A DNA stretch of 64,000 bases from Gemmatimonadales bacterium (GCA_044221045.1 JBGAPX010000006.1:780-64779); one strand, 5' to 3'; positions 5,516 through 32,341 are shown, counted from the first letter of the stretch. The notes: a model not told the origin generated them from the sequence alone. Program-made: numbers and translations.

Positions 5516-5543
5516 CCAACCGGGACGAGACCGGGCTGTCCAA
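5516..5543 (+). promoter_or_regulatory. Candidate ECF-sigma promoter (CCAACC-N16-GTCCAA)
   Basis: AAC/GTC pattern typical of ECF promoters, 8 nt before the ATG of the ECF sigma gene. Confidence 0.45.
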
Positions 5544-5551
5544 CCCGGTGC

Positions 5552-6118: not shown

Positions 6119-6122
6119 AGTC

Positions 6123-6773: not shown

Positions 6774-6789
6774 CCATGGGGACCGACCG

Positions 6790-7629: not shown

Positions 7630-7657
7630 ACTTCCACTGCCTCCCACTGGAGACTGC

Positions 7658-8428: not shown

Positions 8429-8485
8429 GCGGCGGCTTCCGGTCCCCAGTCGCGGCGCCCCCGGTCCCGGGGGCGCCGCGTGCGT

Positions 8486-9817
8486 TCAGGCGCTGGCGGG
8501 CCGGGGTGCCCGGCGCCGCCAGAACAGGAACACCGGGATCCCGAGGATGAGGATCCCCGTGCCCAGGAGCGCGTTCCGCGGGTTCGACACGATCGACCCG
8601 CCGACCACGTACACCGAGGCCGCGATGAACAGCAACGGGGTCACCGGCCACCCCGGCACCCGGAAGGCCGCGGTGCGCCCCGCCGCGTCGTCCTTCCGCC
8701 GGATGAAGAACAGCGCCACCACGCCCAGGCCGAAGAAGATCCAGTCGCAGAACACCACGTAGTCCAGGAGCTGGCCGTAGCGCCCGGTGAACAGCAGCGC
8801 CTCCGCCCACAGCCCCTGGAACAGGATGGCCGTGCCCGGTGTCTGGTACCTCGGGTGCAGCGCGGCGAAGGCCGGGAAGAAGAGCCCGTCGGCGGCCAGG
8901 GTGCGGTAGACCCGCGGCGACACCATGATCACGAGGTTCAGGAAGCCGAAGGTCGAGGCGGTGATGCCGAGGCTGATCACCAGCGCCCCGGCCGGACCGA
9001 GCGCGGCGCGCATGGCGTCGGCCGCGGGGGCGGCGCTCGCGGCGAGTCCCGCCGGCCCCAGCATCCGCAGGTAGGCCACGTTGGCGAGCAGGTACACCGC
9101 CACCACAATCACGACCCCGAGCACCAGCGCCCGCGGCAGGTTCCGCAGCGGATCGATGATCTCCTCGGCGATGAAATTGGTCTGCTGCCAGCCCCCGTAG
9201 GCGAACAGCACCGGCACCAGCGCGGCGGCGATGGCCACCGCGGGGTGGGCCGGCGCCGGGGGCGCGGCGGCGGCCGCGGCCGGCGCCGCCCAGGCCACCC
9301 CGACCGCGATGAGGAAGCCGAGCGCCACGAGCTTGAGGACGGTGAAGATGTTGGTGGTGAAGGCGCCGGGGCGGATGCCAAGGAAGTTGATGAGGGTGAG
9401 CACCGCGATCGCGGCGGCCGCGAGCGGCCGGCTCCACGCCGGCGGCAGGCCGAGCAGCGGCACCGCGTAGTTCGCGAAGGTCACCGCGACCGCGGCGATC
9501 GCGCCGGTGGCCATGACCAGCAGCAGCGCCCACGCATAGAGGAAGGCGGGCAGGGCCCCGAGGCCCTCGCGCAGGTAGACGTAGCTCCCGCCGGCCTGCG
9601 GCCGCCGCTGCCCCAGTTCCCCGAAGCAGAAGGCGCCGATCAGCGCGATGGCCCCGCCGAGGATCCATACGCCGAGGGTGAGCGGCGCGGTGCCGACGCG
9701 CTGGGCCACGATGGCGGGGTTGATGAAGATGCCGGAGCCGATGATGCCGCCGACGACGGCCATGGTGCCGGAGAAGAGCCCGAGGGTCCGGCGGTAGCTG
9801 ATGGGAGGGGAGGTCAT
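8486..9817 (-). CDS. APC-family amino acid permease
   Basis: GGIIGSGIF in TM1, FAYGGW, about 12 hydrophobic segments. Confidence 0.92.
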   Translation of the reverse strand: MTSPPISYRRTLGLFSGTMAVVGGIIGSGIFINPAIVAQRVGTAPLTLGVWILGGAIALIGAFCFGELGQRRPQAGGSYVYLREGLGALPAFLYAWALLLVMATGAIAAVAVTFANYAVPLLGLPPAWSRPLAAAAIAVLTLINFLGIRPGAFTTNIFTVLKLVALGFLIAVGVAWAAPAAAAAAPPAPAHPAVAIAAALVPVLFAYGGWQQTNFIAEEIIDPLRNLPRALVLGVVIVVAVYLLANVAYLRMLGPAGLAASAAPAADAMRAALGPAGALVISLGITASTFGFLNLVIMVSPRVYRTLAADGLFFPAFAALHPRYQTPGTAILFQGLWAEALLFTGRYGQLLDYVVFCDWIFFGLGVVALFFIRRKDDAAGRTAAFRVPGWPVTPLLFIAASVYVVGGSIVSNPRNALLGTGILILGIPVFLFWRRRAPRPASA

Positions 9818-15872: not shown

Positions 15873-18800
15873 ATGTGGTCCCCGCGAGTCCTCGCCGCGC
15901 TGGTGGTTGCCGTCGCGGCCACCGAGCCGCCCACGCCGCTCGGCGTGCTCTCTTCCTCGCCCTCGGGCGAGGCGCTGCCCACCGCGCCCATCCAGGTGAT
16001 CTTCGACCGGCCCGTGGCGGGCTCGCTCGACCGATCCGTGGACCCGGCGGGCCTGCTGCGGATCACGCCGGCCCTCGCCGGCCGGGCGGAGTGGCGGGAC
16101 CCGGTGACCCTGCGGTTCCTCCCGGCGGCGCCGCTCACCCCGGGCACGAGCTACACCGTCACGGTCCCCAACACCTTCGAGGCCATGGACGGGAGCCGGC
16201 TCGCGGAGCCGTACACCTATTCCTTTACCGTCAGCGGGCCGACGCTACTGACCGGCCTGCCGGTGAGCGAGGGCGAGCATCCCCGCTACCTCACCCCCGA
16301 GTCCACCTTCGAGGTGGTGTTCTCCACCCCGCTCGCCCCCCAGCCGCAGGGCCAGCTCGGATACGTGCAGCTCGCTTCCACCTGCCGCCAGCCGGGAGCT
16401 ATCCCGCTGCGAGTCCGCGGCCAGCGACCGATCGATGACCAGGCCCCCTGGCAGTTCCAGGAGGCCGGGGGGTGGGATCGCGACCACGGCGCCGACTCCC
16501 TCCGCCGCATCGTCGAGCTGGTGCCGGTCCGGCCGCTCCCGCTCGACTGCTCGGGGGAGCTGGTGCTGCCCACCAGCATCGATCCCGAGAACACCAGGCC
16601 TTTCGTCCGCTGGGGCTTCCAGACCTACGCCCCGTTCCGCCTGGTGGGGGCGAGCTGCGGGGGCGGCGACGTCTGCCCGGCGGGCGGCATCCGGCTCGAG
16701 TTCTCCACCCCGGTCAAGGGCGCGGACGTGGAACGGGAGGTTTCCATCCTCCCCAAGGTGGCCTTCTCCGTCTCGGACACCTCCGAGACCTCCGAGACCT
16801 GGTACCTCGAGGCCACCCTCACGCCCCACACCGCCTACGCCGTGAACGTGGCTCCCACCCTCACGGACATCTTCGGCCAGCGGCTCGGGGGCAACCCCGC
16901 CGCCGGCTTCCGGACCACCGGTTACGCCCCGCTGGTGGAGCACGAGTACGGCCGGATGACGGTGGAGCGGGCGCCGTTCCGCACCCTCGCCGTGAAGTAC
17001 GTCAACGTCGACACCCTGGCCGTGACGATCGCGCCGGTGCCCGCCCGGCTCATCCCGGCCATGCTGCAGTACAACCGCTGGAACCAGGATGACAGCGCCC
17101 TGGCCGCGGTGCTCAAGGGGGCCACCACCACCCGGGTACGGGTCACGGGGCCGCGCGACCGGGTGCGCATCTTCGGCGTGAAGCTGCCGCTGTACAACAT
17201 GCAGCGGCCGAGCGCCCCCATCCTGCAGCTGGTCAAGGTCACCAGCCCGACCCTCTCCGAGGACTGGCAGGCCAGCCAGCCCTACGCCATCGTGCAGGTG
17301 ACCGACCTGGCCGTGCACGCCAAGATCGGCCTCTCCGGCGGCGTGGTGTGGGTCACCGGGGTGGCCGACGGCAAGCCGCGGGCGGGGGCGGCGGTGACGC
17401 TTTACGATCCCATCGGGAAGGTCCGCGCCACCGCGCGCACCACCGCCGACGGCATCGCGGTGCTTGGCCCGTACGTGACGGATTCCGCCGGGGGTGAGGA
17501 ATTCGGCTTCCAGGGCTATGTCGTGGCGAGCGACGGCAACGACAAGGCGCTCACCAGCATCTCCAGCTACGATCCCGACCTCTCGCCGTGGCGCTTCAAC
17601 GTGAATTCCGCCTACGGGACCGACCGGTACCCGCTGGCCGCGGCAGTCTTCACCGAACGGGGGATCTACCGCCCGGGCGAGCCGGTCTACGCCAAAGCCA
17701 TCGTCCGCAACGGCAACCTCGGCGCGCTCACCGTGCCGGCACGCACCGACAGCCTGCACTGGATCTTCCAGGACCGCGAAGGCGGCACGCTGCGCGAGGT
17801 GACCGTGGCGCCTTCAGCGTTCGGGACGTCCAGCCAGAGCTTCACCCTCCCCGCCGGCTCCCCGCTGGGCAGCTATTCCGTGCGGCTGCAGCTCAAGCGT
17901 GGCAGCGAGTGGCAGGACTTCGCCACCGCCGACTACCGGGTGGCGGAGTACCGGCCGCCGGAGTTCCTGGTGACCGCCACCGCCGACACGGCGCCCCGCT
18001 ACCCGGGCGATTCCGCCACCGCCGCCGTGGAGGCCCGCTACCTCTTCGGGGCCCCCATGGCGCGCGCGGTGCTCACCTGGTCGGCCCGGCAGACCTCGCT
18101 CAGCTTCGGGGCGGTCGTGATCCCCAACACCGACGGCTATTACTTCGGCGACGGCGGCTGGTGGTGGGAGGAAGAGGAGTCCGGCGGCGTCACCACCCTG
18201 GCGCAGGGTACCGACACCCTCGACGGGAAGGGTCGCGCCACCCTCCGCTTCCCGGTGGGGCCGGCGGTCAAGGGCCGGCCGGCGCGGGCCGTGCTCGAGG
18301 CCTCGGTCACCGACGTGAACCGCCAGTCGGTCGGGGCGCAGGCCAGCCTGCTGGTGCACCCCGCTTCCTTTTATATAGGCGCCAAGCCGCTGGGCCAGAG
18401 CTACTTCTGGACGGCGGGGCAGCCCCAGGCCGTGGCGCTGATCGCCGTCAGGCCCGACGGGCGCCGGGTGGAGGGCGTGAAGGTGAAGGGCACGGTGGTG
18501 CGGCGGGAATGGCACCGGGTGCACCGGACCCGCGGCGGATACAGCGAGGTCTACGGCGAGTGGGTGTCCGACACGGTCGCGCGCTGCGGCGTGGAGACCG
18601 AGCGCGACCAGCCGGTCCACTGCCGCTTCACGCCCCCGGGCGGCGGCACCTACATCATGACCTTCGAGGCGGCGGACCGGCAGGGCCGTCCTGTCTCGAC
18701 CAGCGTGTACCGCTGGGCCACGGGCAGCGACTACGTGCCGTGGAACGACGAGTCGCAGTTCAAGATGGATGTGGTCCCGGACAAGTCCCGCTACAGCGTG

Positions 18801-21614
18801 GGCGACACCGCCACGGTGCTCTTCGCCTCGCCCTTCACCGATGCCGACGCGTGGGTCACGGTGGAGCGCGAGGGCCTGATCGAGCAGCGGCGGATCCACA
18901 TCACCAGCGGCTCCACCACCCTCAAGTTCCCGGTGACCGAGGCCTGGGCGCCGAACGCGTTCGTGTCCATCGTGGTGGCGCGCGGCCGCAGCGCCGCGCC
19001 AGGCCCCCTCGATGATCCGGGACGTCCCACCATGCGTGTCGGTTACGCCGACCTGCGGGTGACGCCCGAGGTGAAGCGGCTCACGGTGGCGGTGGCGCCG
19101 CTGAACAAGGAGTACCGCCCCGCCGATACCGCGCGGGTGCAGCTCAAGGTCACCGATCGCCTCGGCCGGGGGCAGCGCGCCGAGGTCACCCTGTGGGCGG
19201 TCGACGAGGGTGTGCTGGCCCTCACTGGGTATCGCACTCCCGACCCCCTCGACCTGCTCTACCGTGAGCGGGGCCTCGGCCTGCGGCTCGCGAGCAACCT
19301 CACCACCGTGGCCCCCCAGGTGCCCGAGGGCGAGAAGGGCAACCGCGCGCCCGGGGGCGGTGGCGGCCAGGGCGAGGCCGACCTGCTCCGCTCCCAGTTC
19401 AAGACCACGGCCTTCTTCCTGGGCAGCGTGCTCACCGATTCCACCGGTGCCGCGACCGCCGCGGCCCGACTGCCGGACAACCTCACCACCTTCCGGGTCA
19501 TGGCGGTCGCGGTCACGGCGGGGGACCGCTACGGCAAGGGCGAGTCGCCCATGCTGGTCACCCGGCCGCTGCTGGCCCGGCCGGCGCTGCCCCGCTTCGT
19601 CCGCGAGGGCGACCGCTTCGAGGCCGGCGTGGTGGTGAACCAGCGCGCCGGTGGCACGCCCACCGTCACCGTGAAGGCCGAGCCACGCGGGGCCGAACTC
19701 ACCGGGGCGGCCAGCCAGACGGCCACCCTCGAGGCCGGCCGCGGGCGCGAGGTACGGTTCGCCTTCCGCCAGCCCGGCGGCGATCCCGTGGGCGGCGGCG
19801 ACAGCGCGGCGTTCCGCTTCCGGGTCACCGGCGCCGGTGACGCCGACCTGGTGGAACAGCGCCTCGCGGTGCGGCCCGCCTTCCGGCCCCGCGCGTGGAC
19901 CATCGCCGGCGTGCTGCTCGACACCGCCACCGCGCGGTTCACGCTGCCCGAGGGGCTGGACCTGGCCCGTTCCCGCCTGAGCCTCACCCTGGGCAGCTCG
20001 CCGCTGAGCGTGGTCCGCGGGCTGTCGTGGGAGCTCCGGGTGTACCCGTACTACTGCACCGAGCAGACCTCGAGCGCGGCCCAGCCCATCATCGCGCTCT
20101 ACCGTGCCCAGCAGGAGACCAAGACCACCCTGCTCAAGGGGAACCCGAAGCGCGAGATCGAGACCGCGGTGGCCATTCTGAGCCGGCGGCAGCGCGCCGA
20201 CGGCGGGATCGGGTACTGGGGCAGCAACGACTGGACCACTCCGTGGCTCAGCGCCTACGCCGGGGCCACCCTGCTCGACGCGCGCGCCGCCGGCATTGCC
20301 GTGGATGACAGCGTGCTGGCGCGGCTCGGCGGGTACCTGCGCACCGCCCTCGACGACCCGCAGGCCATCGCGGCGCCGGTGATCGGCTGGTACGAACGGG
20401 TGCAGGTGCGCCTGGCCGACCAGGTGGCCGCGGTCGACTACCTGAGCCGCCTCGGCAAGCCGCACGTTGCCGCCGAAAACGAGCTGCTCCGTAACGCCGC
20501 GCAGCTGGCGTGGGAGGACCGGGTGCGCCTGGCGGAGGTGCTGGCGCGGCGGAAGGCCGTCCGCGCGGCCCGCAGCCTGTTGGAGCCGGCGTGGAAGTCG
20601 GTGAAGGTGGAGGGCCGCCGGGCGGTCATGCCGGAGGTCGCCCTGCGGGACGTGCACTACTTCGTGAGTCGCAGCCGTCCCTACGGCCGCCTGCTGCAGG
20701 CCACGCTGGCGGTGGATTCGGCCAGCGCGCTGGTGGGCCCGCTGGTCGAGACGCTGGTGCAGCAGGGGCGCGCCGGCACCCTCGACTACTGGAACACGCA
20801 GGATTACGCGTCCATCGTCAGCGCGCTCGCCGCGTTCGACCGCCGCTCCCGCGCCGGCGCGGCGCGGCCGTTCTCGGTGAGCGGGGCGGGGCGGACCCTG
20901 CTCGCCTCCGCCGGGGCGCCCGCCGCGAGCGCGCGGGGCGCCATGCGTGACTCGAGCGTGGCACTTACCGGGCTGGTGGAGGGCCGGGCGCTCGCCGTGC
21001 AGCTGGCGGCCACCGGCCCCGGGGCGCCGATCTACTACTACCTGACGGTCCACGAGGTGCCGAAGGAACGACCGGTCAATCCCGAGGAGCAGGGGATTCG
21101 CGTGGAACGGTGGTACGAGCGCTACGACCGGGCCGAGCCGCTGACCACCGTGGCCGCCGGCGAACTGGTGCGGGTGCGGCTCCGGGTCACGGTCCCCGAG
21201 GAACGGCAGTTCGTGGTGGTGGACGATGCCCTGCCCGCCGGCCTCGAGGCGGTGGACCTGAGCCTGCGGACCGCCAGCCTGACCCCAGGTCCCGGCGTGG
21301 ACCAGGCCACCACCTACCTCACGCCCCAGCAGGCCGACGAGGAAGACGGCGAGGACCAGGCCCCGGGCGGCTACTGGTACTACGGCCGCTGGGACTCGGG
21401 GTGGTGGTCGCCGTGGGAATTCCGCGAGATCCGCGATGACCGCGTGGTCTATTCCGCCACGGTCCTGTGGAAGGGCAGCTACACCATGAGCTACATCGCG
21501 CGCGCCACCACGCCGGGGACCTTCGTGCGGCCCCCCGCCCACGCCGAGGAGATGTACAACCCTGCGGTGTACGGGCGCAGCGACGGGGGCCTCTTCACCG
21601 TCACGGTGAAGTGA
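15873..21614 (+). CDS. yfhM: Bacterial alpha-2-macroglobulin (thioester-containing)
   Basis: 1913 aa; FTERGIYRPGE, EYRPPEF, LWAVDEG, RLPDNLTTFRVMAVA, thioester motif YYCTEQ, HAEEMYNP; followed by pbpC. Confidence 0.95.
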   Translation: MWSPRVLAALVVAVAATEPPTPLGVLSSSPSGEALPTAPIQVIFDRPVAGSLDRSVDPAGLLRITPALAGRAEWRDPVTLRFLPAAPLTPGTSYTVTVPNTFEAMDGSRLAEPYTYSFTVSGPTLLTGLPVSEGEHPRYLTPESTFEVVFSTPLAPQPQGQLGYVQLASTCRQPGAIPLRVRGQRPIDDQAPWQFQEAGGWDRDHGADSLRRIVELVPVRPLPLDCSGELVLPTSIDPENTRPFVRWGFQTYAPFRLVGASCGGGDVCPAGGIRLEFSTPVKGADVEREVSILPKVAFSVSDTSETSETWYLEATLTPHTAYAVNVAPTLTDIFGQRLGGNPAAGFRTTGYAPLVEHEYGRMTVERAPFRTLAVKYVNVDTLAVTIAPVPARLIPAMLQYNRWNQDDSALAAVLKGATTTRVRVTGPRDRVRIFGVKLPLYNMQRPSAPILQLVKVTSPTLSEDWQASQPYAIVQVTDLAVHAKIGLSGGVVWVTGVADGKPRAGAAVTLYDPIGKVRATARTTADGIAVLGPYVTDSAGGEEFGFQGYVVASDGNDKALTSISSYDPDLSPWRFNVNSAYGTDRYPLAAAVFTERGIYRPGEPVYAKAIVRNGNLGALTVPARTDSLHWIFQDREGGTLREVTVAPSAFGTSSQSFTLPAGSPLGSYSVRLQLKRGSEWQDFATADYRVAEYRPPEFLVTATADTAPRYPGDSATAAVEARYLFGAPMARAVLTWSARQTSLSFGAVVIPNTDGYYFGDGGWWWEEEESGGVTTLAQGTDTLDGKGRATLRFPVGPAVKGRPARAVLEASVTDVNRQSVGAQASLLVHPASFYIGAKPLGQSYFWTAGQPQAVALIAVRPDGRRVEGVKVKGTVVRREWHRVHRTRGGYSEVYGEWVSDTVARCGVETERDQPVHCRFTPPGGGTYIMTFEAADRQGRPVSTSVYRWATGSDYVPWNDESQFKMDVVPDKSRYSVGDTATVLFASPFTDADAWVTVEREGLIEQRRIHITSGSTTLKFPVTEAWAPNAFVSIVVARGRSAAPGPLDDPGRPTMRVGYADLRVTPEVKRLTVAVAPLNKEYRPADTARVQLKVTDRLGRGQRAEVTLWAVDEGVLALTGYRTPDPLDLLYRERGLGLRLASNLTTVAPQVPEGEKGNRAPGGGGGQGEADLLRSQFKTTAFFLGSVLTDSTGAATAAARLPDNLTTFRVMAVAVTAGDRYGKGESPMLVTRPLLARPALPRFVREGDRFEAGVVVNQRAGGTPTVTVKAEPRGAELTGAASQTATLEAGRGREVRFAFRQPGGDPVGGGDSAAFRFRVTGAGDADLVEQRLAVRPAFRPRAWTIAGVLLDTATARFTLPEGLDLARSRLSLTLGSSPLSVVRGLSWELRVYPYYCTEQTSSAAQPIIALYRAQQETKTTLLKGNPKREIETAVAILSRRQRADGGIGYWGSNDWTTPWLSAYAGATLLDARAAGIAVDDSVLARLGGYLRTALDDPQAIAAPVIGWYERVQVRLADQVAAVDYLSRLGKPHVAAENELLRNAAQLAWEDRVRLAEVLARRKAVRAARSLLEPAWKSVKVEGRRAVMPEVALRDVHYFVSRSRPYGRLLQATLAVDSASALVGPLVETLVQQGRAGTLDYWNTQDYASIVSALAAFDRRSRAGAARPFSVSGAGRTLLASAGAPAASARGAMRDSSVALTGLVEGRALAVQLAATGPGAPIYYYLTVHEVPKERPVNPEEQGIRVERWYERYDRAEPLTTVAAGELVRVRLRVTVPEERQFVVVDDALPAGLEAVDLSLRTASLTPGPGVDQATTYLTPQQADEEDGEDQAPGGYWYYGRWDSGWWSPWEFREIRDDRVVYSATVLWKGSYTMSYIARATTPGTFVRPPAHAEEMYNPAVYGRSDGGLFTVTVK

Positions 21615-21627
21615 GCGGAGGCGCCGG

Positions 21628-23904
21628 GTGCTGATGCGGGTCGTGCGCGGCGCCTGTGCCGCCGGGGCGCTGCTCGGCCTCGGGGTGGCGGCATGGGTGG
21701 CGTGGCCGCTGCCCCGGGCGCTGCTCGAGCCCGGGGTGCGGCAGAGTCTCACGCTGGAAGACCGGCACGGGCTGGTGCTGCGCTCCACCCGCGCGGGTGA
21801 TGGATCCCTGAACCGCTGGTTCAGTCTGGCGGAGATGGACCCCGACCTGCCGCGGGCCTTCGTGGCGGTGGAGGATCACCGCTTCTACCAGCACCGCGGC
21901 GTGGACGTTCGCGCGATCGGGCGGGCGCTGCGGGACAACCTGCGCCGTGGCGCCGTGGTCTCCGGGGCCTCGACCATCACCATGCAGCTGGCGCGCCTGC
22001 TGGTGCCCATCGGGCACGGTGCCGGGGGCAAGCTGCGGCAGACGGTCTGGGCGCTCCGCCTCGAGGCGCATCTCGGCAAGGACCAGATCCTCGAGCAGTA
22101 CCTCAACCGGGTGCCGATGGGACAGGGGGCGATCGGCGTGGCGGCCGCCACGCGACTCGACTTCGGCCGCGCGCCGACCGAGGTGAGCCTCGGCCAGGCC
22201 GCCATGCTGGCGGGCCTGGCGCGCGCGCCCTCGAGCCAGAATCCGCTGGTGGATCCGGCGCGGGCAACCCGGCGACGGGACGCCGGCCTCACCCGGCTGG
22301 TGGCGGATGGGTACGCCTCGCTGGAGGAGGTGGAGCGGGCGCGCCACGAGCCGCTGCTGGGCGGCGACCGCAGCCGGCCCTTCCTCGCACCGCACTTCAC
22401 CAGCCGGGTGCTGCAGGACGGCGTGGCCGGAGGCCGGCGCGCGGAGGGCACCTGGCGCACCTCGCTCGACCTGGCGCTGCAGGCCGCGCTCGAGGACGAG
22501 GTGCGCCATACGGTGAACCAGCTGCGCGATCGCGGCGCCCGGCAGGCGGCGCTGGTGGTGCTCGAGAACCGCTCCGGCGAAGTCCTGGCCTGGGTGGGCA
22601 GCCCCGACTTCTGGGCCGACACCGCCGGCCAGGTGGACATGGTCGTGAGCGGCCGGCAGCCGGGCTCGGCGCTCAAGCCGTTCCTCTACGCGCTGGCCTT
22701 CGATCGCGGGGCGACTGCTGCCACCGTCCTCGCCGACGTGGCCACCACCTACCAGACCGGCAGCGGGCCCTACCATCCGCGGAACTACGACCGCGCCTTC
22801 CACGGTCCGGTCCGCGCGCGCGAGGCGCTGGCCAGCTCCTACAACGTCCCCGCCGTGGAGCTCGCGAGCCGCATCGGCTACGCGACGCTGCTCCACGGGC
22901 TCCAGGCCGGCGGATTCACCTCCCTCGACCGTTCCCCCGAGCACTACGGGCTCGGCCTGGCGCTCGGCAACGGGGACGTGACCCTGCTCGAGCTCGCCAA
23001 TGGATATCGCGCGCTCGCCAACGGCGGGGTGTGGACCGCCCCGCGCTGGTGGGCCGGGGACGCCCGCCGGCCGAGCGGGGCCGGGCGCCGGATGGTGTCG
23101 CCGCGGGCCGCGGCGCTGGTGCTCGACATCCTCGCCGATCCCGAGGCGCGGATCCCCGCCTTCGGCATCGGCACCCCCTTCGACTGGCCCTTCCGCGCCG
23201 CGGCCAAGACCGGCACCAGCCGGCACTTCACCGACAACTGGGCGGTGGCGGTCACCGCCGGCTTCACCGTGGGAGTCTGGGTCGGGAACTTCGATGGCCG
23301 GCCCATGGAGGGGGTCAGCGGCATCACGGGCGCGGGCCCGCTGCTCCATCGCGCCGTCCTGGTCACGGCGCAGCGCTATGCCGCGGGATCGCTCCCCACC
23401 GCGGGCGAGGCGGGCCTGCTGCCGGCGCACATCTGCCGCCTCTCCGGCGAACTGGCCGGCCCGGAGTGTCCCACGATGACCGAGTACTTCATCCCGGGGA
23501 CGCTGCCCACCGCGACCTGCCGCTGGCACCGGAACGGCCAGGTGGAGCTCCCGGTCGAATACGCCGAGTGGCGGGCGACCACGACCGGGGCCGCCAGGCC
23601 ACGAGCCGTGGCCGGTGGCGTCCCGGCCGCTCCCGGACCGGCGGCGCCGACGGCCCGCCTCACCATCACCTCGCCGCAGGAAGGGGATCACTACCAGATC
23701 CCGCCGGGGGTGGAGGGTCGCTATGCCACCATCGCCTTCCGGGCCGCCGGCATCCCCGCGGGCGCGCCGCTGCGCTGGCTGCTCGACGGCCGGCCGGTGG
23801 CCGCCGGGCGCTGGACATTGGCGCCGGGGCGGCACCGGGTGCGGGCGGAGGCGGGGGCGATGGTCGACGAGGTGGAGATCACGGTGACGGCCCCGGGGCG
23901 CTGA
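21628..23904 (+). CDS. pbpC: Penicillin-binding protein 1C
   Basis: Transglycosylase motifs EDHRF, GASTITMQL; transpeptidase SALK, SYN, KTG; adjacent to the macroglobulin gene. Confidence 0.95.
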   Translation: MLMRVVRGACAAGALLGLGVAAWVAWPLPRALLEPGVRQSLTLEDRHGLVLRSTRAGDGSLNRWFSLAEMDPDLPRAFVAVEDHRFYQHRGVDVRAIGRALRDNLRRGAVVSGASTITMQLARLLVPIGHGAGGKLRQTVWALRLEAHLGKDQILEQYLNRVPMGQGAIGVAAATRLDFGRAPTEVSLGQAAMLAGLARAPSSQNPLVDPARATRRRDAGLTRLVADGYASLEEVERARHEPLLGGDRSRPFLAPHFTSRVLQDGVAGGRRAEGTWRTSLDLALQAALEDEVRHTVNQLRDRGARQAALVVLENRSGEVLAWVGSPDFWADTAGQVDMVVSGRQPGSALKPFLYALAFDRGATAATVLADVATTYQTGSGPYHPRNYDRAFHGPVRAREALASSYNVPAVELASRIGYATLLHGLQAGGFTSLDRSPEHYGLGLALGNGDVTLLELANGYRALANGGVWTAPRWWAGDARRPSGAGRRMVSPRAAALVLDILADPEARIPAFGIGTPFDWPFRAAAKTGTSRHFTDNWAVAVTAGFTVGVWVGNFDGRPMEGVSGITGAGPLLHRAVLVTAQRYAAGSLPTAGEAGLLPAHICRLSGELAGPECPTMTEYFIPGTLPTATCRWHRNGQVELPVEYAEWRATTTGAARPRAVAGGVPAAPGPAAPTARLTITSPQEGDHYQIPPGVEGRYATIAFRAAGIPAGAPLRWLLDGRPVAAGRWTLAPGRHRVRAEAGAMVDEVEITVTAPGR

Positions 23905-23932: not shown

Positions 23933-23968
23933 TTGCGGTCGAAGTTGCATAATGCATATTTATCCCCC
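23933..23968 (+). promoter_or_regulatory. arg operon promoter with ARG-box-like sequence
   Basis: AT-rich island TTGCATAATGCATATTTAT in GC-rich DNA, with two TGCAT half-sites, immediately before argG; argR is in the same operon. Confidence 0.55.
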
Positions 23969-25153
23969 ATGAAGACCTGCGTCCTCGCCTTCTCGGGCGG
24001 CCTCGACACCTCCTTCTGCGTCCCGCACCTGGCTGAGCAGGGCTGGGCCGTCCATACCGCCTACGTGAACACCGGGGGCGCCACCGCCGCCGACCTCGAC
24101 GCCATCGCCCGGCAGGCCGCGGCGGTCGGGTCGGTGCGGCACCATACGGTGGACGCCAGGCAGGCGGTCTTCGACCGGTTCGTCCGGTACCTCATCCAGG
24201 GGAACGTGCTGCGGGGCGAGGTCTATCCCCTCTCCGTGGCCGCCGAGCGGACCCAGCAGGCGCTCTCCGCCATCGAGGTGGCGCGCCAGGTGGGCGCCAC
24301 GGCCGTGGCGCACGGTTCGACCGGCGCCGGCAATGACCAGGTCCGGTTCGACATCGCCTTCCGGGTGCTGGCTCCCGACCTCGAGGTGATCACGCCCATC
24401 CGCGAGCTCGGGTTGCAGCGCGACCAGGCGATCGCGTACCTCGAGGCGCGGAAGCTGCCCGTCCCGCCGAAGGCGGGTGCCTATTCGATCAACCGGGGCC
24501 TGTGGGGCACCACGTGGGGCGGCGGCTGGACGCATGACACGTGGGCCGGCCCTCCCGCCGAGCTGGTCGACCCGCCCGCCGACGCGCCTGCCCCGCGGGA
24601 AATCCTCCTCGGCTGGGAGCACGGTATTCCCGTCAGCCTCGATGGCGCCCCGACCGGCGGGCCCGAGCTGATCCGTCAGATCGGCGACCTGGGCGAGGCC
24701 TACGGATTCGGCCGCAACATCCACGTCGGCGAGACGGCCCTCGGGATCAAGGGCCGGATCGGATTCGAGGCCGGCGCGGCGCTGCTGCTCATCGCGGCGC
24801 ACCGGGAACTGGAGAAGCTGGTCCTCACCAAGTGGCAGGCCTTCTGGAAGGACCAGCTGGCCCGCTTCTACGGTGACCGGCTGCACGAGGGGCACTACTT
24901 CGACCCGGCCCTCCGCGACATCGAGGCGCTCCTGACCAGCAGTCAGCAGCGGGTGAGCGGTGAGACCCGGGTGCGGCTGGCCCCAGGGCGGTTCCAGGTG
25001 GTCGGCACCCGCAGCCCATTCTCCATGATGGACCGCAGCGTGGCCACGTACGGCGAGGAGAACCGGCTGTGGACCGGCGCGGAGGCCCAGGCCTTCAGCC
25101 GCGTCTCGGCAATTCCCGAGCTCCTCGCGGAGCGGGTCCTCCACAAGCGGTAG
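23969..25153 (+). CDS. argG: Argininosuccinate synthase
   Basis: LAFSGGLDTS, HGSTGAGNDQVRFD, YSINRGLWG, GIKGRIGFEA. Confidence 0.95.
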   Translation: MKTCVLAFSGGLDTSFCVPHLAEQGWAVHTAYVNTGGATAADLDAIARQAAAVGSVRHHTVDARQAVFDRFVRYLIQGNVLRGEVYPLSVAAERTQQALSAIEVARQVGATAVAHGSTGAGNDQVRFDIAFRVLAPDLEVITPIRELGLQRDQAIAYLEARKLPVPPKAGAYSINRGLWGTTWGGGWTHDTWAGPPAELVDPPADAPAPREILLGWEHGIPVSLDGAPTGGPELIRQIGDLGEAYGFGRNIHVGETALGIKGRIGFEAGAALLLIAAHRELEKLVLTKWQAFWKDQLARFYGDRLHEGHYFDPALRDIEALLTSSQQRVSGETRVRLAPGRFQVVGTRSPFSMMDRSVATYGEENRLWTGAEAQAFSRVSAIPELLAERVLHKR

Positions 25154-25241: not shown

Positions 25242-26324
25242 ATGGTGAAGACCACCCGCATCCGGCTCGACAAGATCTCGTCGAGCACCCGGAACGCGCA
25301 CCTGACGGCGGAGGTGATCCTCGGTGACGAGATCATCGCGGCCGAGGGGTACGTGCTCGCCGTGCGGATCCTGCACGACAAGTCGAGCTACAACACGATC
25401 GAGGACCTGTCGGGGCGGATGGTCTCCCTCCGTGCCGGCGACGTGCTGGCGGGGACGCTGGGGCACCGGCGCGCGCTGCGCGGCTATGCCGGCGTGGTGC
25501 CGAGCCACGTGGCCGTGGGCGACACCATCGAGGTGCTCAACCTTGGCGGCATCCTGGGGCGCTGCACCTCCGCCAACCCGGAGAACGGCATGCCCTTCAA
25601 GGCGGAGGTGCTGGGCGCGATCCTGACCTTCCCGGCGCTCGGCGACCGGATCGGCCACCCGGCGCACATCAAGGACCATTCGGTGCCGGTGGCGGAGCGG
25701 CTGGAAAGCCAGGTGCCCGTGGTCTACATCGCCGGCACGTGCATGAACGCGGGGAAGACCGTGGCCGCCACCGAGCTGGTGCGGGGCCTCAGCCGCTCCG
25801 GGCTCCGGGTGGCGGCGAGCAAGCTGACGGGCGTGTCCTTGATGCGCGACGCGCTGTCCATGGTGGACGCCGGCGCCATCGCGGCGCTCACCTTCAACGA
25901 CATCGGCATCGCCACCACCCGCGCCGGGCTGACCGTCACGGCCGCCAAGGGGATCTTCAACCGGCTCGCCGCGAGCAAGCCGGACGTCATCGTGGCGGAA
26001 CTGGGCGACGGGATCCTCGGCGAGTACGGGGTGCAGGACATCCTCCGCGACCCGGAGCTCACCGGCGTCGGGGCGGCCTACGTGATGGCCGCGCCGGACC
26101 CGGTCGGGTGCTGGGGCTCGGTGACACTCATGCGTGACCTGTTCGGCCTGCCGGTGACCGTCCTCACCGGGCCCGCCACCGACAACGAGGTGGGCCGCGA
26201 CTACGTGAAGGCGGAGCTGCGGCTCCCGGCCTTCAACGCGCTCCGCGAGGCCCCCGCGCTGGTCGAGGTGGTGCGCCAGGCGCTCGACGCGCGCCTGGCC
26301 GCTCCCGCCCTGGCGGGGGCGTAG
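25242..26324 (+). CDS. DUF1611-like (DgcN-related) P-loop protein; candidate glutamate N-acyltransferase
   Basis: GTCMNAGKT, KLTG, DAGA...F.D.G..TT, ELGDGILG motifs recalled from DUF1611-annotated proteins. AGGAGG RBS, inside the arg operon. The function is inferred. Confidence 0.65.
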   Translation: MVKTTRIRLDKISSSTRNAHLTAEVILGDEIIAAEGYVLAVRILHDKSSYNTIEDLSGRMVSLRAGDVLAGTLGHRRALRGYAGVVPSHVAVGDTIEVLNLGGILGRCTSANPENGMPFKAEVLGAILTFPALGDRIGHPAHIKDHSVPVAERLESQVPVVYIAGTCMNAGKTVAATELVRGLSRSGLRVAASKLTGVSLMRDALSMVDAGAIAALTFNDIGIATTRAGLTVTAAKGIFNRLAASKPDVIVAELGDGILGEYGVQDILRDPELTGVGAAYVMAAPDPVGCWGSVTLMRDLFGLPVTVLTGPATDNEVGRDYVKAELRLPAFNALREAPALVEVVRQALDARLAAPALAGA

Positions 26325-26329
26325 CCCGG

Positions 26330-27376
26330 ATGGCGCTCCGGGTGGCGGTGATCGGGGCCGCCGGCTACGTCGGCGGTGAACTGCTGCGGTTGCTGGCCGA
26401 CCACCCGGAGGTGGGTTCGGTCGTCGCCACCAGCCGCAGCAAGGCCGGCGCCCCGGTGGCCGAGACGCATCCGCAGCTGGCGCCGCTCACCGACGCACGC
26501 TTCTCAGGTGCTACCCCCGCCGAGGCGGCCCGGGAGGCCGACGTGGTGTTCCTGGCGCTGGAGCATGGGGAATCGTCAAAGGTGGCGGGAGAGATCCTCG
26601 AGGCCGGGGCGGCGCTGGTGGTCGACCTGGCCGCCGATTTCCGGGTGCAGGACCTCGAGCTGTACGCCCGTTACTACGGGCAGCATCCCGCGCCGGCGCT
26701 GGTGCCGCAGTTCACCTACGCGCTGGCCGACGTGCTGGGCGAGTCGCTCCGGGGCAGGCGCGCGCTGGCGGCGCCGGGCTGCTTCGCCACCGCGGCCGAG
26801 CTGGCGCTGTACCCGTTCGGCGGGCTGGGTGGGGGGCTCCTGCCGGCGCTGTTCGGCGTGACCGGGTCGAGCGGCAGCGGGGTGCACCCGAAGGCCACGA
26901 CGCATCACCCGGCGCGGGCCCACAATCTGTTCGCCTACTCGGTGCTGGGGCACCGCCACGAGGCCGAGATCCTCGAGCGCTGGCGCGCGTGGACCGGGAC
27001 CCCGGCCGCGCGGGCCCGGCTCATGACGCACTCGGGCCCGTTCGTGCGGGGGATCCACCTGACGCTGCACGTGGACCTGGAACCGGCGCGCGCGGCCGCG
27101 GGGGCGGTGGATGTCCGGTCCCGGTTCCGCGACGCCTACGCGGGGCGGCCCTTCGTCCGGCTGGTGGACCAGCCGCCGGAGCTGACCCACGTGATCGGCA
27201 CCAACCACGCCCTGATCCACGCGGCCCAGTCGGCGGACGGCCGCGAGGCGCAGGTGATGGTGGTGATCGACAACCTGGTGAAGGGCGCCGGCGGGCAGGC
27301 CATCCAGGCGATGAACCTCGCACTGGGGCTGCCGGAGACCGCGGGACTGCGGTTCGGCGGGCTCTATCCCTGCTGA
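26330..27376 (+). CDS. argC: N-acyl-gamma-glutamyl-phosphate reductase
   Basis: VIGAAGYVGGEL, DLAADFR, APGCFATA, GSSGSG, IDNLVKGAGGQAIQAMN. Confidence 0.95.
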   Translation: MALRVAVIGAAGYVGGELLRLLADHPEVGSVVATSRSKAGAPVAETHPQLAPLTDARFSGATPAEAAREADVVFLALEHGESSKVAGEILEAGAALVVDLAADFRVQDLELYARYYGQHPAPALVPQFTYALADVLGESLRGRRALAAPGCFATAAELALYPFGGLGGGLLPALFGVTGSSGSGVHPKATTHHPARAHNLFAYSVLGHRHEAEILERWRAWTGTPAARARLMTHSGPFVRGIHLTLHVDLEPARAAAGAVDVRSRFRDAYAGRPFVRLVDQPPELTHVIGTNHALIHAAQSADGREAQVMVVIDNLVKGAGGQAIQAMNLALGLPETAGLRFGGLYPC

Positions 27377-27404
27377 GCAGGGTCTCCCCGAAGGAGGTGG
27401 CGGC

Positions 27405-28421
27405 GTGACCAAGCGGGACTTCATCACCGTCGAGGACTGGTCGGCCGAGGAGGTCGACGCGCTGCTCGCGCTCGCGGCGAAGGTCAAGCGGGGCGAGGTG
27501 CTGGGCGGCCTCGAGCGGAAGGTGATGGCCATGGTCTTCATGGACCCGAGCATGCGGACCCGGACCAGCTTCGAGACGGCCATGTACCTCCACGGCGGGC
27601 ACGCGGTGGTCCTGGAGCCGGGCAAGAGCAGCTGGAGCCTGGAGACCGAGATGGGTGCCGTCATGGACGGCACCACGGTGGAGCACCTCAAGGACGCCGC
27701 CCAGGTGCTGGGGCGGTACGCCGACGTGGTCGGGGTCCGCTCCTTCCCGCGGGGGGACGACTGGGCCAGCGTCCGGGAGGACCACGTCATCCGGGACTTC
27801 GCGCGTTACTGCGGGAAGCCGGTGATCAACATGGAGTCCACCCGGCGCCATCCCTGCCAGCAGCTGGCCGACGCCCTGACCCTGCGGGAGAAGCTGGGCG
27901 ACCCACGGGGCAAGCGGTTCGTGCTCATGTGGGCCTGGCACCCGAAGGCCCTGCCGACCGCCGTCCCGGCCAGCGCGGCGCTCGCCGCGGCGCACCAGGG
28001 GATGGAGATCGTGATCGCGCGGCCCGACGGCTACGAGCTGGACCCGGAGGACACCGCGCTGATCCGGCGGATCGCGCAGGCGCGGGGGGGCGAGTTCGTG
28101 CACATCATCAACGACCCCGACGAGGCGCTGGTCGGGGCGGACGTGGTGTACGTGAAGAGCTGGGGGTCGGTGAAGCAGTTCGGGCGGCCGGAGGAGGAGG
28201 CGGCGCTGCGCCGGGGGCTGCGGGACTGGCGGCTGACCGCCCCCAGGCTCCGCTCCACCCGCGAGGGCCGGGCCACGGTGATGCACTGCCTCCCGGTACG
28301 GCGCAACGTGGAGATCGACGACGCGGTGCTCGACGGTCCCACCTCGGCGGTGGTGGACGAGGCGGAGAACCGGCTGCACGTGCAGCGGGCGCTGCTGCTG
28401 GAGCTGATCGGCGGGCGGTAG
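27405..28421 (+). CDS. argF: N-acylornithine carbamoyltransferase (ArgF'; predicted N-succinyl-specific)
   Basis: SMRT, EH...VRSFP, HPCQ, HPKALP, HCLPVRRN: acylornithine-type transcarbamylase motifs rather than canonical OTC (STRT, SMG). Confidence 0.92.
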   Translation: MTKRDFITVEDWSAEEVDALLALAAKVKRGEVLGGLERKVMAMVFMDPSMRTRTSFETAMYLHGGHAVVLEPGKSSWSLETEMGAVMDGTTVEHLKDAAQVLGRYADVVGVRSFPRGDDWASVREDHVIRDFARYCGKPVINMESTRRHPCQQLADALTLREKLGDPRGKRFVLMWAWHPKALPTAVPASAALAAAHQGMEIVIARPDGYELDPEDTALIRRIAQARGGEFVHIINDPDEALVGADVVYVKSWGSVKQFGRPEEEAALRRGLRDWRLTAPRLRSTREGRATVMHCLPVRRNVEIDDAVLDGPTSAVVDEAENRLHVQRALLLELIGGR

Positions 28422-28448: not shown

Positions 28449-29393
28449 ATGACACGGATGAGCATCGATACCTCGAAGGGCATCACCGGGCTCAAGGGCG
28501 CGCTCCGCTACGTGCGCGCCTACCGGGACAACGTCTTCGTGGTGAAGCTGGGCGGCGACGTGCTCGCCGACACCGAGGCGCTGGACCGGGTGGCGGGGCA
28601 GATCGGGCTGCTCTCCTCGCTCAACATCCGGATCGTCCTGGTGCATGGCGGTGGGCCGCAGGCCACCGCGCTGTCGCGCCGGCTGGGGCAGGAGCCGGTG
28701 ATCGTCGCGGGCCGCCGGGTGACCGACGACAGCGCGCTCGACGTGGCCAAGATGGTCTACGCCGGCACCCTCAACGTGAACCTGCTCGCGGCCCTCCGGG
28801 CCCACGAGGTGCAGGGCGTGGGGCTCTCCGGCGTGGACGCCGACCTGCTCTCGGCCCGCCGCCGGCCGCCGGTCACCGTGGTGGACGACGCGGGGGTCTC
28901 ACGCGAGGTGGACTTCGGCCACGTCGGCGACGTGGACCGGGTGGACCCGCGGGTGCTGCTGACGCTGCTCGACGCCCGCTTCGTGCCGGTGGTGGCCAGC
29001 CTGGCCGGCGACGGGGAGGGGCAGGTCTTCAACGTCAACGCCGACACCGTGGCCGAGTCGCTGGCCGTGGCGCTCAAGGCGCAGAAGCTGCTGTTCCTGA
29101 CGGGCGCCCCCGGGGTGCTGCGCGACCGCGCCGATCCCTCGAGCCTGGTGACCTTCGCCGACCCCGACGACCTGGCGGCGCTCATGTCCAGCGGCGCGAT
29201 CGCCGGGGGCATGCGTCCCAAGGTGGAAGCCTGCATCCGCGCCGCGACCGGCGGGGTCGAGCGCACCCACATCATCGACGGCCGCCTTCCCGATTCCATC
29301 CTGCTCGAGGTGTTCACCGGGGCGGGGTGCGGGACGATGATCGTCGGCCGCAAGGAAAAGGCGACCTACCTTGGCGTGGACCTCGCGACCTGA
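28449..29393 (+). CDS. argB: N-acylglutamate kinase
   Basis: VVKLGG, LVHGGGPQ, NVNAD, GGMRPK; 314 aa, no fused GNAT domain. Confidence 0.93.
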   Translation: MTRMSIDTSKGITGLKGALRYVRAYRDNVFVVKLGGDVLADTEALDRVAGQIGLLSSLNIRIVLVHGGGPQATALSRRLGQEPVIVAGRRVTDDSALDVAKMVYAGTLNVNLLAALRAHEVQGVGLSGVDADLLSARRRPPVTVVDDAGVSREVDFGHVGDVDRVDPRVLLTLLDARFVPVVASLAGDGEGQVFNVNADTVAESLAVALKAQKLLFLTGAPGVLRDRADPSSLVTFADPDDLAALMSSGAIAGGMRPKVEACIRAATGGVERTHIIDGRLPDSILLEVFTGAGCGTMIVGRKEKATYLGVDLAT

Positions 29394-30447
29394 GATCGGC
29401 CTGCTCCGCGACCTGGTCGCGATCCACTCCGTCAGCGGGACCGAGGAGGGGATTGCCCGCTGGGTGGTGGAGTGGGCGGAAGCGGCCGGGCTCGCCGCGG
29501 CGCGGGACGATGCGTCCGTGGCGCTCACCGTGCCGGGACGGGCGGCCGGCCCCACGCTGGCGTTCGTGTCGCACCTCGACACGGTGCCGGCGGGGGAGGG
29601 GTGGACTCGTCCGCCCTTCGCGCCGACCATCGAGGACGACCGCCTCTACGGCCGCGGCTCGGGCGACGCCAAGGCCTCGGTGGCGGCCATGCTGATGGCC
29701 GCCCGTGACCTCGCCGAGGCGGGGGGCCCCGCCCGCGGCCGGCTGCTGGTGATCCTCGGCTATGAGGAAGAGACCAAGCACACCACCATGGGCACCGCGG
29801 TGGAACGGCTGGGCCCCATCGACGCGGCCGTGGTGGGGGAACCCACCAACCTCGAGCCCGCGATTGCCCAGCGCGGCCTCATGATGGCCGACCTGGTGGC
29901 CCGCGGGGTGCAGCGCCACGCCGGCTACGCCGCCGACAACCCCGACTTCACGAACGCCATCGTCGAGCTGGGGCGTAACGTGGCGAAGCTGCCCGCCCTC
30001 TTCCGGGACCGGGTCCACCCCATCCTGGGCATCGCCACGGCCACGCCCACGATGCTCGAGGGCGGCGTGAGCCGGAACGTGACGCCGCCGGTGGCGCGGG
30101 CGGTGCTCGACGTGCGCAGCACCCCCAACTGGACCCACGCCGAGCTGGCCGAGGCGCTCCGGGCGGCGCTCGACGTGGAGGTGGTGATCACCTCGGACCG
30201 GCTGGTGCCCTGCGAGACCCCGGCCGCCTCCCGGCTGCTGGCGGTGGCGCAGGCCATCCGCCCCGAAGGGAAGCCGTTCGGTTCTCCCACGTGCTCCGAC
30301 TGGGTATTTTTGCGAGACAAGGACGCCATCAAGTGCGGGCCCGGTACCAGCCGCCGGTCGCACACCCCGGACGAGTTCGTGGACCTCCCCGAGGTCACGG
30401 CCGCCCGGGACTTCTACCGTCACCTCGCCCAGGCCTACCTCGCATGA
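29371..30447 (+). CDS. argE: M20-family deacylase (ArgE-like; acyl-citrulline/ornithine deacylase)
   Basis: SHLDTV, GRGSGDAK, YEEE, GEPT, SHTPDE; operon context. Start uncertain (TTG overlapping argB). Confidence 0.85.
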   Translation: MAWTSRPEIGLLRDLVAIHSVSGTEEGIARWVVEWAEAAGLAAARDDASVALTVPGRAAGPTLAFVSHLDTVPAGEGWTRPPFAPTIEDDRLYGRGSGDAKASVAAMLMAARDLAEAGGPARGRLLVILGYEEETKHTTMGTAVERLGPIDAAVVGEPTNLEPAIAQRGLMMADLVARGVQRHAGYAADNPDFTNAIVELGRNVAKLPALFRDRVHPILGIATATPTMLEGGVSRNVTPPVARAVLDVRSTPNWTHAELAEALRAALDVEVVITSDRLVPCETPAASRLLAVAQAIRPEGKPFGSPTCSDWVFLRDKDAIKCGPGTSRRSHTPDEFVDLPEVTAARDFYRHLAQAYLA

Positions 30448-31889
30448 GCAAGCCCAAGAAGTCCCGCCCCACGGGACGCCGGCCCGCGGACGCGCCGGCT
30501 CCCGCCCTGCCGACGACGCTCTGGGTCTCGAGCAACTCGCTGGACCGCCAGATGCTCGACTACACCGCGACCGAGGACCGGCTCTGGGACGGCCGCCTGA
30601 TCGCGTGGGACATCCTCGGCAGCCTGGGGCACATCGAGGGGCTCCGCGCCTCCCGGCTCCTGTCGCAGGGCGAGTACCAGAAGATCCGCGCCGGCCTCCG
30701 CCTGGCGCTGCGCGAGGTGGACGAGGGGCGCCTGGTGCTCGGGCCCGAGCACGAGGACGTGCACACCTGCGTCGAGGACTGGCTGGTGCGGCGCACCGGC
30801 GCGGCCGGCGAGCGGCTGCACACCGGGCGTTCGCGCAACGACCAGGTGGCCTGCGACCTCCGGCTCTACCTCAAGGACCGCCTGCTGCTGCTCTCCGGCG
30901 AGGCGCTCGACCTGGCCGAGAGCCTGCTGATGTTCGCGACCCGCTACCAGCGAGTGCTGTGGCCGGGGTACACCCATACCCGCCGGGCCATGCCCTCGTC
31001 GGCCGGCCTGTGGGCCGCGGCCTTCGCCGAGGGGATCATCGACGTGGTCGAGGCGCTGCCGGCGGTGTGGGCCAAGGTGGACCGCTCCCCGCTGGGCAGT
31101 GCCGCCGGCTACGGCGTCCCCCTGCCGCTCAAGCGGGAGGCGGCCGCGAAGGCCCTCGGCTTCGGGGCCCTGGAGCACAACGTGGCGCTGGTCCAGAACA
31201 GCCGCGGCAAGCTCGAGGCGCTGGTGCTCTTCTGGTGCGTGCAGCTGGGCCACGAGCTCGGCAAGCTCAGCACCGACATCATCACCTTCAGCGCCGACGA
31301 GTTCGGGTTCCTGGTGCTGCCGCCCGACCTGGCCACCGGCAGCAGCATCATGCCGCACAAGCGGAACCCCGACCTGTTCGAGCTCACCCGCGGCCGCGCC
31401 GCTGCGCTGGAGGGCGACCTGCTCACCGTCTTCCAGGTCAAGAGCAAGCTCGGCAGCGGCTACCACCGCGACTTCCAGCTGATCAAGGAGCCGGTCATGC
31501 GCGGCGTGGACCGCCTCGAGGGCATGCTGTCCATGCTCGCGGTCGCGGTGCCGCGGCTGGGGGTGGACGCCTCCGTGGGGCGCGACATCCTCTCCGGCGG
31601 GCCGCTCGCCACCGACGAGGTGATGCGGCGCGTCGAGGGCGGCAGCGCCTTCCGCTCGGCCTATCGCGAGGTGGCCGCTGCCATCAAGGAAGGCGACTGG
31701 TGGCGCGAGCCGGCCACCGACGAGATCATCAGCCGCCGCCGCAGCACCGGCGGGCTGGGCAACCTGGGCCTGGGGATGGTCCAGGGACGCCTGCGCGCCT
31801 GCCGCCGCTGGGCCGACCGGGAGCAGCGGCGGTTCGATGGCGCGATGCACGCGCTCGCCGGCCGTGGCGGCGCCCGCGGACGGTCATGA
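30444..31889 (+). CDS. argH: Argininosuccinate lyase
   Basis: LHTGRSRNDQV, PGYTH, GSSIMPHKRNPD; ATGA overlap with argE. Confidence 0.95.
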   Translation: MSKPKKSRPTGRRPADAPAPALPTTLWVSSNSLDRQMLDYTATEDRLWDGRLIAWDILGSLGHIEGLRASRLLSQGEYQKIRAGLRLALREVDEGRLVLGPEHEDVHTCVEDWLVRRTGAAGERLHTGRSRNDQVACDLRLYLKDRLLLLSGEALDLAESLLMFATRYQRVLWPGYTHTRRAMPSSAGLWAAAFAEGIIDVVEALPAVWAKVDRSPLGSAAGYGVPLPLKREAAAKALGFGALEHNVALVQNSRGKLEALVLFWCVQLGHELGKLSTDIITFSADEFGFLVLPPDLATGSSIMPHKRNPDLFELTRGRAAALEGDLLTVFQVKSKLGSGYHRDFQLIKEPVMRGVDRLEGMLSMLAVAVPRLGVDASVGRDILSGGPLATDEVMRRVEGGSAFRSAYREVAAAIKEGDWWREPATDEIISRRRSTGGLGNLGLGMVQGRLRACRRWADREQRRFDGAMHALAGRGGARGRS

Positions 31890-32341
31890 GCGGCGACCGG
31901 CGCAAGCGGCTCCTCAAGATCCTCGAGCTCATCAGCACCCGCCCGGTGCGGACCCAGGAGGAGCTCGCCGACGCCCTCTCCGCCGAAGGCTGGAAGGTGA
32001 CCCAGAGCTCGGTGAGCCGCGACATCGCCGCGCTCAAGCTGGTGAAGGTCGACGGCGCCTACCAGCGGCCGGCCCGGATCGCGGCCGTCCCGGAGCATCC
32101 CGATGAACGGCGCATCGCCGAGGGGGTGCTCACGGCCGACCCCGCGGGCGACGCGCTGCTGGTCCTGCACACCCCCGCCGGCGAGGCCAACCGCGTCGCC
32201 GTGGCCATCGACCGGCTGGCCTGGCCAGACGTCATCGGGAGCATCGCCGGGGACGACACGATCTTTCTCGCCGTGACCCACGGCGCCGCGCAGCAGCGCC
32301 TGCTGCGGCGCCTCCGCCAGCTGACCGACACCCGGCGTTAG
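31886..32341 (+). CDS. argR: Arginine repressor
   Basis: RTQEEL...VTQSSVSRDI winged HTH; GSIAGDDTIFL arginine-binding motif. Confidence 0.95.
   Translation: MSGDRRKRLLKILELISTRPVRTQEELADALSAEGWKVTQSSVSRDIAALKLVKVDGAYQRPARIAAVPEHPDERRIAEGVLTADPAGDALLVLHTPAGEANRVAVAIDRLAWPDVIGSIAGDDTIFLAVTHGAAQQRLLRRLRQLTDTRR

Follow-up and report, generated by a model that had tools for sequence, protein, structure and literature searches.

Two described enzymes serve as references for the gene studied here: the N-acetylornithine transcarbamylase (AOTCase) of Xanthomonas campestris (PDB 3kzc; mutants 3l06 and 3m5c) and the SOTCase (for N-succinyl-L-ornithine transcarbamylase) of Bacteroides fragilis, likewise named ArgF' (PDB 1js1 and 2fg6; Shi et al. 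2006). Our subject, argF', lies on the plus strand at positions 27,405–28,421 of a 64,000-nt stretch of the genome of a Gemmatimonadales bacterium (hereafter the window; coordinates are counted from its first letter unless another contig or locus is named). It encodes a knotted-type N-acyl-ornithine transcarbamylase of 338 amino acids that begins with a GTG codon, and a strong Shine-Dalgarno sequence, AAGGAGGTG, can be read directly at 27,391–27,399, the start codon following six bases further on. From sequence and gene context, we propose that ArgF' is probably a SOTCase (EC 2.1.3.11) belonging to a succinyl route of arginine biosynthesis.

The residues that separate the two reference enzymes have been laid down before. 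According to a 2015 review of transcarbamylases (PMC4581275), Glu92, Asn185 and Lys302 mark AOTCases, and A/S/P/V/Q at position 92, P at 185 and V/I/E at 302 mark SOTCases. GapMind 2019 and the GapMind 2026 preprint state, citing Shi 2007, that replacement of E92 by A, P, S or V turns the Xanthomonas enzyme N-succinylornithine-specific. A first-pass annotation of the window had invoked both the Glu92 rule and the effect of the E92 mutations, and the review and the two GapMind papers do state them.

With this in mind, we compared ArgF' with both enzymes in a three-way MAFFT alignment, for which the X. campestris and B. fragilis sequences were taken from structure-search alignments. Val92 of ArgF' (codon GTG, 27,678–27,680), in the segment MDGTTVEH, falls on E92 of X. 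campestris AOTCase and P90 of B. fragilis SOTCase, in HMMER and MAFFT alignments alike. Pro184 (codon CCG, 27,954–27,956) stands opposite N185 of AOTCase and P181 of SOTCase, and Glu303 (codon GAG, 28,311–28,313), directly after HCLPVRRNV, stands opposite the carboxylated K302 of AOTCase and I282 of SOTCase. Hence, the specificity position holds Val and not Glu, just as the first-pass annotation had read it from the translation, and its remark that the lysine carboxylated in AOTCase appears to be replaced (RRNVE) is borne out by the alignment; Pro184 is a third discriminating residue beyond the two it had named. At all three positions ArgF' thus carries a SOTCase-type residue (V92, P184, E303), and it has none of those of AOTCase (Glu92, Asn185, Lys302).

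A search of the PDB leads to the same residues from another side. The best match of ArgF' is 3l06, the engineered E92V mutant of Xanthomonas AOTCase, whose aligned segment reads MDGDTVEH, and the second is 3m5c, the K302E mutant, where the alignment shows RRNVE. As the top two matches are these mutants, ArgF' carries naturally both changes that had been engineered there. X. campestris AOTCase, with 317–321 bits, is the closest solved structure and shares the length, the loops and the SMRT motif of ArgF', but its wild type differs precisely in having Glu92, Asn185 and carboxylated Lys302 where ArgF' has Val, Pro and Glu. B. fragilis SOTCase reaches 177 bits and ordinary ornithine transcarbamylases (OTCases) at most 181, and ArgF' stays below the cut-offs of the canonical OTCase models (TIGR00658, 194.9 vs 280.85 bits; NF001986, 219 vs 306).

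The three-way alignment also shows that ArgF' keeps every carbamoyl-phosphate- and substrate-binding residue listed in Table 1 of the review, namely S-x-R-T, Trp77, Arg112, Glu144, HPxQ, Lys252, HCLP and Arg322. It shares with B. fragilis SOTCase the knotted-family architecture and the S-x-R-T, W, R, E, HPxQ, K, HCLP and RRN residues, and since it aligns almost without gaps to the knotted structure from Xanthomonas, a trefoil-knotted C-terminal domain is suggested. In the B. fragilis enzyme, the succinyl carboxylate is anchored by His176, Arg178 and Arg278, whose counterparts in ArgF' are His179, Lys181 and Arg299. ArgF' has a non-Glu residue at 92, Pro at 185 and the His and Arg anchors in common with that enzyme. 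It departs from it by Val92 for Pro, Glu303 for Ile and, as in Xanthomonas, Lys181 for Arg178, as well as by a longer 240s region, again as in Xanthomonas.

We thus envisage that ArgF' would move the carbamoyl group from carbamoyl phosphate to N-succinyl-L-ornithine, giving N-succinyl-L-citrulline. Acyl specificity would be set chiefly by position 92, here an uncharged Val; in our own reading, Glu92 of the acetyl enzyme would shut out the distal carboxylate of the succinyl group. His179, Lys181 and Arg299 would be in place as anchors for that carboxylate, and Glu303 would sit where carboxylated Lys302 is found in AOTCase.

The three residues are kept among relatives. Our sample comprised 80 fetched related loci, of which every one bears a Gemmatimonad- label apart from a single contig given as Verrucomicrobiae. 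V92, P184 and E303 are invariant in all 80 Gemmatimonadales ArgF' orthologues (75–97% identity), whereas positions 89–91 and 95–96 of the same loop vary freely; the Val-Pro-Glu triplet is therefore not a matter of chance. The first-pass annotation had taken SMRT, as present in the Xanthomonas enzyme, for a mild counter-signal, but this fails: 73 of the orthologues have Leu at position 50 (SLRT) and the other 7 have Met, and in a wider survey of the family, made on representatives of 50%-identity clusters, Leu and Met are each found both with Glu-Asn-Lys and with succinyl-type triplets. The exceptional contig (locus L028, CAVYXA010000003.1), labelled 'uncultured Verrucomicrobiae', has an argG-orfX-argC-argF' stretch 77–86% identical to the Gemmatimonadales operon, which probably points to faulty binning or labelling and not to gene transfer.

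In the window, argF' is part of a tightly packed operon with the order argG-orfX-argC-argF'-argB-M20-argH-argR, all on the plus strand. The cluster begins with argG for argininosuccinate synthase (23,933–25,153; TIGR00032, 270.7 bits vs cut-off 268.2; syntenic in related loci), followed by orfX (25,242–26,324), which is taken up below, and argC (26,330–27,376; TIGR01850, 319 bits vs cut-off 233.6). Downstream of argF' lies argB for the N-acylglutamate kinase (28,449–29,393; TIGR00761, 215.8 bits), whose product has the Pfam AA_kinase domain alone and no fused GNAT domain. It overlaps by 23 nt with the gene of an M20 (ArgE/DapE-family) deacylase (29,371–30,447; TTG start), and the two last genes are each joined to the preceding one by an ATGA overlap: argH for argininosuccinate lyase (30,444–31,889), which at 258.8 bits falls just below the TIGR00838 cut-off of 279.5, and argR for the arginine repressor (31,886–32,341; TIGR01529, 106.5 bits, below the cut-off of 130.45). 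Gene order is kept in relatives, and the conservation of argF' equals that of its operon partners. In most relatives, argC and argF' are separated by an additional gene, argD, for a class III aminotransferase (e.g. L002:6850–8004), which is gone from the argC-argF' gap (27,377–27,404) in the window and in several close relatives (L001, L004, L009, L010 and L013). Just upstream of the operon, at 15,873–23,904, we observed a gene for a bacterial alpha-2-macroglobulin (1913 amino acids) directly followed by one for a PBP1C-type penicillin-binding protein (758 amino acids), which is the usual pairing of these two proteins.

The M20 deacylase, which has the Pfam M20 and dimerisation domains, is a predicted N-succinylcitrulline desuccinylase. 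Its best PDB match by sequence is 3ct9, protein NP_812461.1 of B. thetaiotaomicron (160 bits; the next match has 92.6), and the same structure is its best fold match (E 1.6e-30). By RefSeq numbering, NP_812461.1 is probably BT3549, the genetically implicated N-succinylcitrulline desuccinylase (GapMind 2019). The location of argF' in an arginine cluster together with an M20 deacylase is a further likeness to B. fragilis. The system described in Xanthomonas, in contrast, has a fused ArgA/B and the acetylcitrulline deacetylase 2f7v, and the latter matches the M20 protein studied here with just 48 bits.

A succinyl route needs an enzyme for its first step. Neither ArgJ nor ArgA was found in this genome, which has 3.6 Mb and is 92% complete. 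This leaves orfX, as judged from its context and its predicted fold, as sole candidate for the N-acylation of glutamate. It encodes a two-domain P-loop protein (motif GTCMNAGKT) and is a candidate N-succinylglutamate synthase, although it belongs to no NCBIfam family and gives a weak Pfam match only (DUF1611_C, E 1.7e-4), and its homologues are all called 'hypothetical protein' in public sources. In every relative with a locus that extends so far, it occupies this place and is 75–99% conserved. Furthermore, in a sample of 61 genomes from the order, the 10 that have orfX are exactly those that have argF'; ArgJ is found in none of these ten and in 24 of the remaining genomes. The AlphaFold2 model of OrfX (pLDDT 78.5) has a beta-rich N-terminal part and a C-terminal P-loop domain, which Foldseek matches to the P-loop folds of BioD, SRP-GTPase, CTP synthase and DUF1611 (2obn). 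No match to solved structures was obtained by sequence, be it from the single sequence or from a profile.

The GapMind 2026 preprint describes a gene product of a similar kind: ACG33_RS14135 of Steroidobacter denitrificans, a hypothetical protein encoded in arginine operons and a very remote relative of DgcN/DUF1611, which it predicts to be an alternative N-succinylglutamate synthase. In such Steroidobacter-type clusters, as in the window, a hypothetical protein with remote DUF1611/DgcN-like similarity stands inside argB/C/D/F'/G/H/R clusters, it and the usual first-step enzyme are mutually exclusive, and the neighbouring ArgF' mostly has A/P/S/V at 92, the preprint giving 90% for those next to that synthase family. 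The cluster studied here differs in having no argD. It differs as well from Bacteroides, where a GNAT enzyme is used for the first step and not a P-loop protein. In another Gemmatimonadales genus (locus L086 of genome G052, contig C4, about 2000–9300), we found argR, an orfX-like gene (43% identity), argC, argD, argB, argG and argH; this cluster has no argF' and no M20 gene, and its genome has the canonical OTCase alone. The orfX family is thus not strictly tied to ArgF'.

Put together, one operon would run the whole pathway on succinylated intermediates. OrfX would form N-succinylglutamate, which ArgB and ArgC, and then an aminotransferase that in this lineage would be encoded elsewhere, would process as succinylated intermediates; ArgF' would produce N-succinylcitrulline, the M20 enzyme would take off the succinyl group, and ArgG and ArgH would complete arginine, with ArgR controlling the operon. 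What is observed are the residues, their alignment and conservation, the synteny and the lack of both ArgA and ArgJ; the substrate of every enzyme in this scheme is inferred. A supply of succinyl intermediates from the catabolic AST pathway was considered and rejected, since no AstA was found in the genome. The succinyl-intermediate pathway put forward by the first-pass annotation is thus supported, as a prediction, by the three residues, the operon context and the missing ArgA and ArgJ; the route, which it took to be mostly described in Bacteroidetes, has already been predicted beyond that group.

A number of observations weigh against this reading. As to the pathway, no dedicated ArgD was found in the 92%-complete assembly, where the search brought up enzymes of the putrescine-aminotransferase-like and GABA-aminotransferase-like types only and nothing above 37% identity; relatives with an argD-less cluster have an ArgD paralogue of 43–45% identity elsewhere, which is not present in this assembly. 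As to OrfX, the folds matched by Foldseek are of a generic SIMIBI P-loop type, DUF1611 (2obn) coming no higher than ranks 16 and 29 and the DgcN structure 7XRJ being absent from the top 50, and it is by the preprint's description that OrfX and ACG33_RS14135 would seem to belong to one family. As to ArgF' itself, it is 48% identical to X. campestris AOTCase and 35% to B. fragilis SOTCase, and it passes NF003384, the AOTCase 'equivalog' model of NCBI, with 412 bits at a cut-off of 288. The closest structures to ArgB, moreover, are hexameric acetylglutamate kinases (~199 bits).

The similarity scores, the resemblance of ArgB to known acetylglutamate kinases and the public records, in which the orthologues are named AOTCase, would all be in keeping with ArgF' as a true N-acetylornithine transcarbamylase (EC 2.1.3.9) in an acetylated pathway as in Xanthomonas. 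We consider this quite improbable. Glu92, Asn185 and Lys302 are all missing from ArgF', and the very Glu-to-Val change seen here is reported to make the Xanthomonas enzyme use succinylornithine; nor was any acetylglutamate synthase (ArgA or ArgJ) found in the genome. In the wider family, the Glu-Asn-Lys pattern of AOTCase is rare among cluster representatives and confined to one tight small clade, with ArgF' outside it. The commonest triplet is Val-Pro-Glu, followed by Ala-Pro-Val, and the family tree joins ArgF', with a support of 99, to a further Val-Pro-Glu cluster and to one of Ala-Pro-Val type; the latter cluster has one member labelled Chondromyces. The deep branches of this tree are poorly resolved and its careful search is incomplete, so we used well-supported shallow clades only.

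The names, too, lose their weight against these residues. NCBI and IMG name the Gemmatimonadota Val-Pro-Glu proteins 'N-acetylornithine carbamoyltransferase', but Thr-Pro-Glu and Val-Pro-Glu proteins also occur in one clade with the SOTCase characterised from B. fragilis (Pro-Pro-Ile), and these IMG names SOTCase. Public names thus track overall similarity and not the specificity residues. Given that ArgF' passes NF003384 with SOTCase-type residues, the acetyl label on the Gemmatimonadota proteins is probably a systematic mislabel.

A different doubt concerns the combination of residues. The mutant data stem from single changes in a Xanthomonas background, and we know of no natural enzyme combining Val92 with Glu302 that has been assayed; characterisation has so far covered the B. 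fragilis enzyme, which is Pro-Pro-Ile, and mutants with one change each. Across the family, positions 92 and 302 covary: Glu at 302 accompanies V/I/T/M at 92 in 15 clusters, and Val or Ile accompanies A/S/P/Q in 23, against 4 exceptions (Fisher p = 1.6e-7, with no correction for phylogeny), and the states switch inside well-supported clades of the tree. Such coupling would fit a Val92/Glu303 subtype that forms a third class, either with a broad or other acyl specificity, be it for succinyl and acetyl alike or for some other short acyl or dicarboxylyl group, or with Glu303 as a hard-wired version of the CO2-dependent carboxy-lysine. This is unlikely in our judgement, since the review counts Glu at 302 as SOTCase-type (PMC4581275) and Val-Pro-Glu enzymes are found in the B. 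fragilis clade itself. Also, the negative charge of carboxy-Lys302 is left in place in the E92V mutant, which is nonetheless reported to be succinyl-specific, so that Val92 together with an acidic residue at 302 is compatible with succinylornithine.

A fuller version of the same thought, to which we likewise give only a small chance, would divide the non-Glu92 enzymes into two coupled states, Val/Thr/Ile92 with Glu302 and Ala/Ser/Pro/Gln92 with Val/Ile302, and would make the Gemmatimonadales Val-Pro-Glu enzymes a distinct class in organisms with two citrulline routes. A fixed Glu would then possibly replace the CO2-dependent carboxy-lysine of AOTCase, and the acyl range or the regulation would possibly be unlike those of the B. 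fragilis enzyme. Of the two routes, one would lead de novo via succinylornithine and the other would recycle ornithine via arginase and OTCase.

This brings us to the canonical OTCase, the last point that counts against a purely succinylated pathway. Its gene is found on another contig of the genome (C102:14,255–15,139; locus L084:6238–7176, minus strand), where it adjoins gcvT and lies away from the arg genes. The paradigms from Xanthomonas and Bacteroides are not known to include a canonical OTCase, and the Gemmatimonadota host differs in this from B. fragilis. A reading of the gene as pyrB was rejected, its product being a canonical OTCase (NF001986, 440 bits; TIGR00658, 379.6 bits), and a function of this OTCase in the arginine deiminase pathway was rejected because no carbamate kinase was found in the genome. 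Of the 61 genomes sampled from the order, 59 encode an OTCase, among them each of the ten with argF', and the acyl-citrulline route may therefore not be the sole one. One could go further and regard ArgF' as redundant or secondary, with the M20 enzyme deacylating N-acyl-ornithine and the C102 OTCase making the citrulline for arginine; the genus whose orfX-like cluster does without argF' and M20 would agree with this. We hold it to be highly improbable, as argF' is conserved like the other operon genes, its active site is invariant and the OTCase gene stands apart from them. The two arginase-family genes of this genome, together with the lack of a carbamate kinase, would instead allow the OTCase to recycle ornithine, and one may speculate that it does so while ArgF' serves de novo synthesis. 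A third type of transcarbamylase occurs in other genera of the order (L088:7570–8520 and L089:7501–8466), with about 37% identity to both ArgF' and OTCase and scores below every NCBIfam cut-off (OTCase models 251–262 bits, AOTCase ~236, YgeW 216–240); a distantly related M20 gene is found beside these genes or close by, and the genomes have neither ArgJ nor orfX.

In summary, we take ArgF' of this Gemmatimonadales bacterium to be probably a SOTCase of a succinyl arginine route. Much of the framework is known already: the specificity rule, the succinyl pathway, its spread beyond Bacteroidetes and, as a prediction of the GapMind 2026 preprint, the P-loop first enzyme; the main text of that preprint does not mention Gemmatimonadota. 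Our study opens no new kind of biology, and what value remains lies in a database label that is probably wrong, in an OTCase that coexists with ArgF' and in the coupling of positions 92 and 302. The last bears on how acyl specificity is built in the family, and the operon offers a compact gene set (orfX, argF', M20) bearing on the alternative first enzyme predicted in 2026.

Gemmatimonadota are abundant soil bacteria. Should the assignment be correct, NCBI PGAP, through NF003384, and IMG would mislabel their enzymes as acetylornithine carbamoyltransferases, and metabolic reconstructions would give a false 'missing ArgA' gap or wrong intermediates. A whole branch of Gemmatimonadota would then make arginine via succinylated, not acetylated, intermediates.

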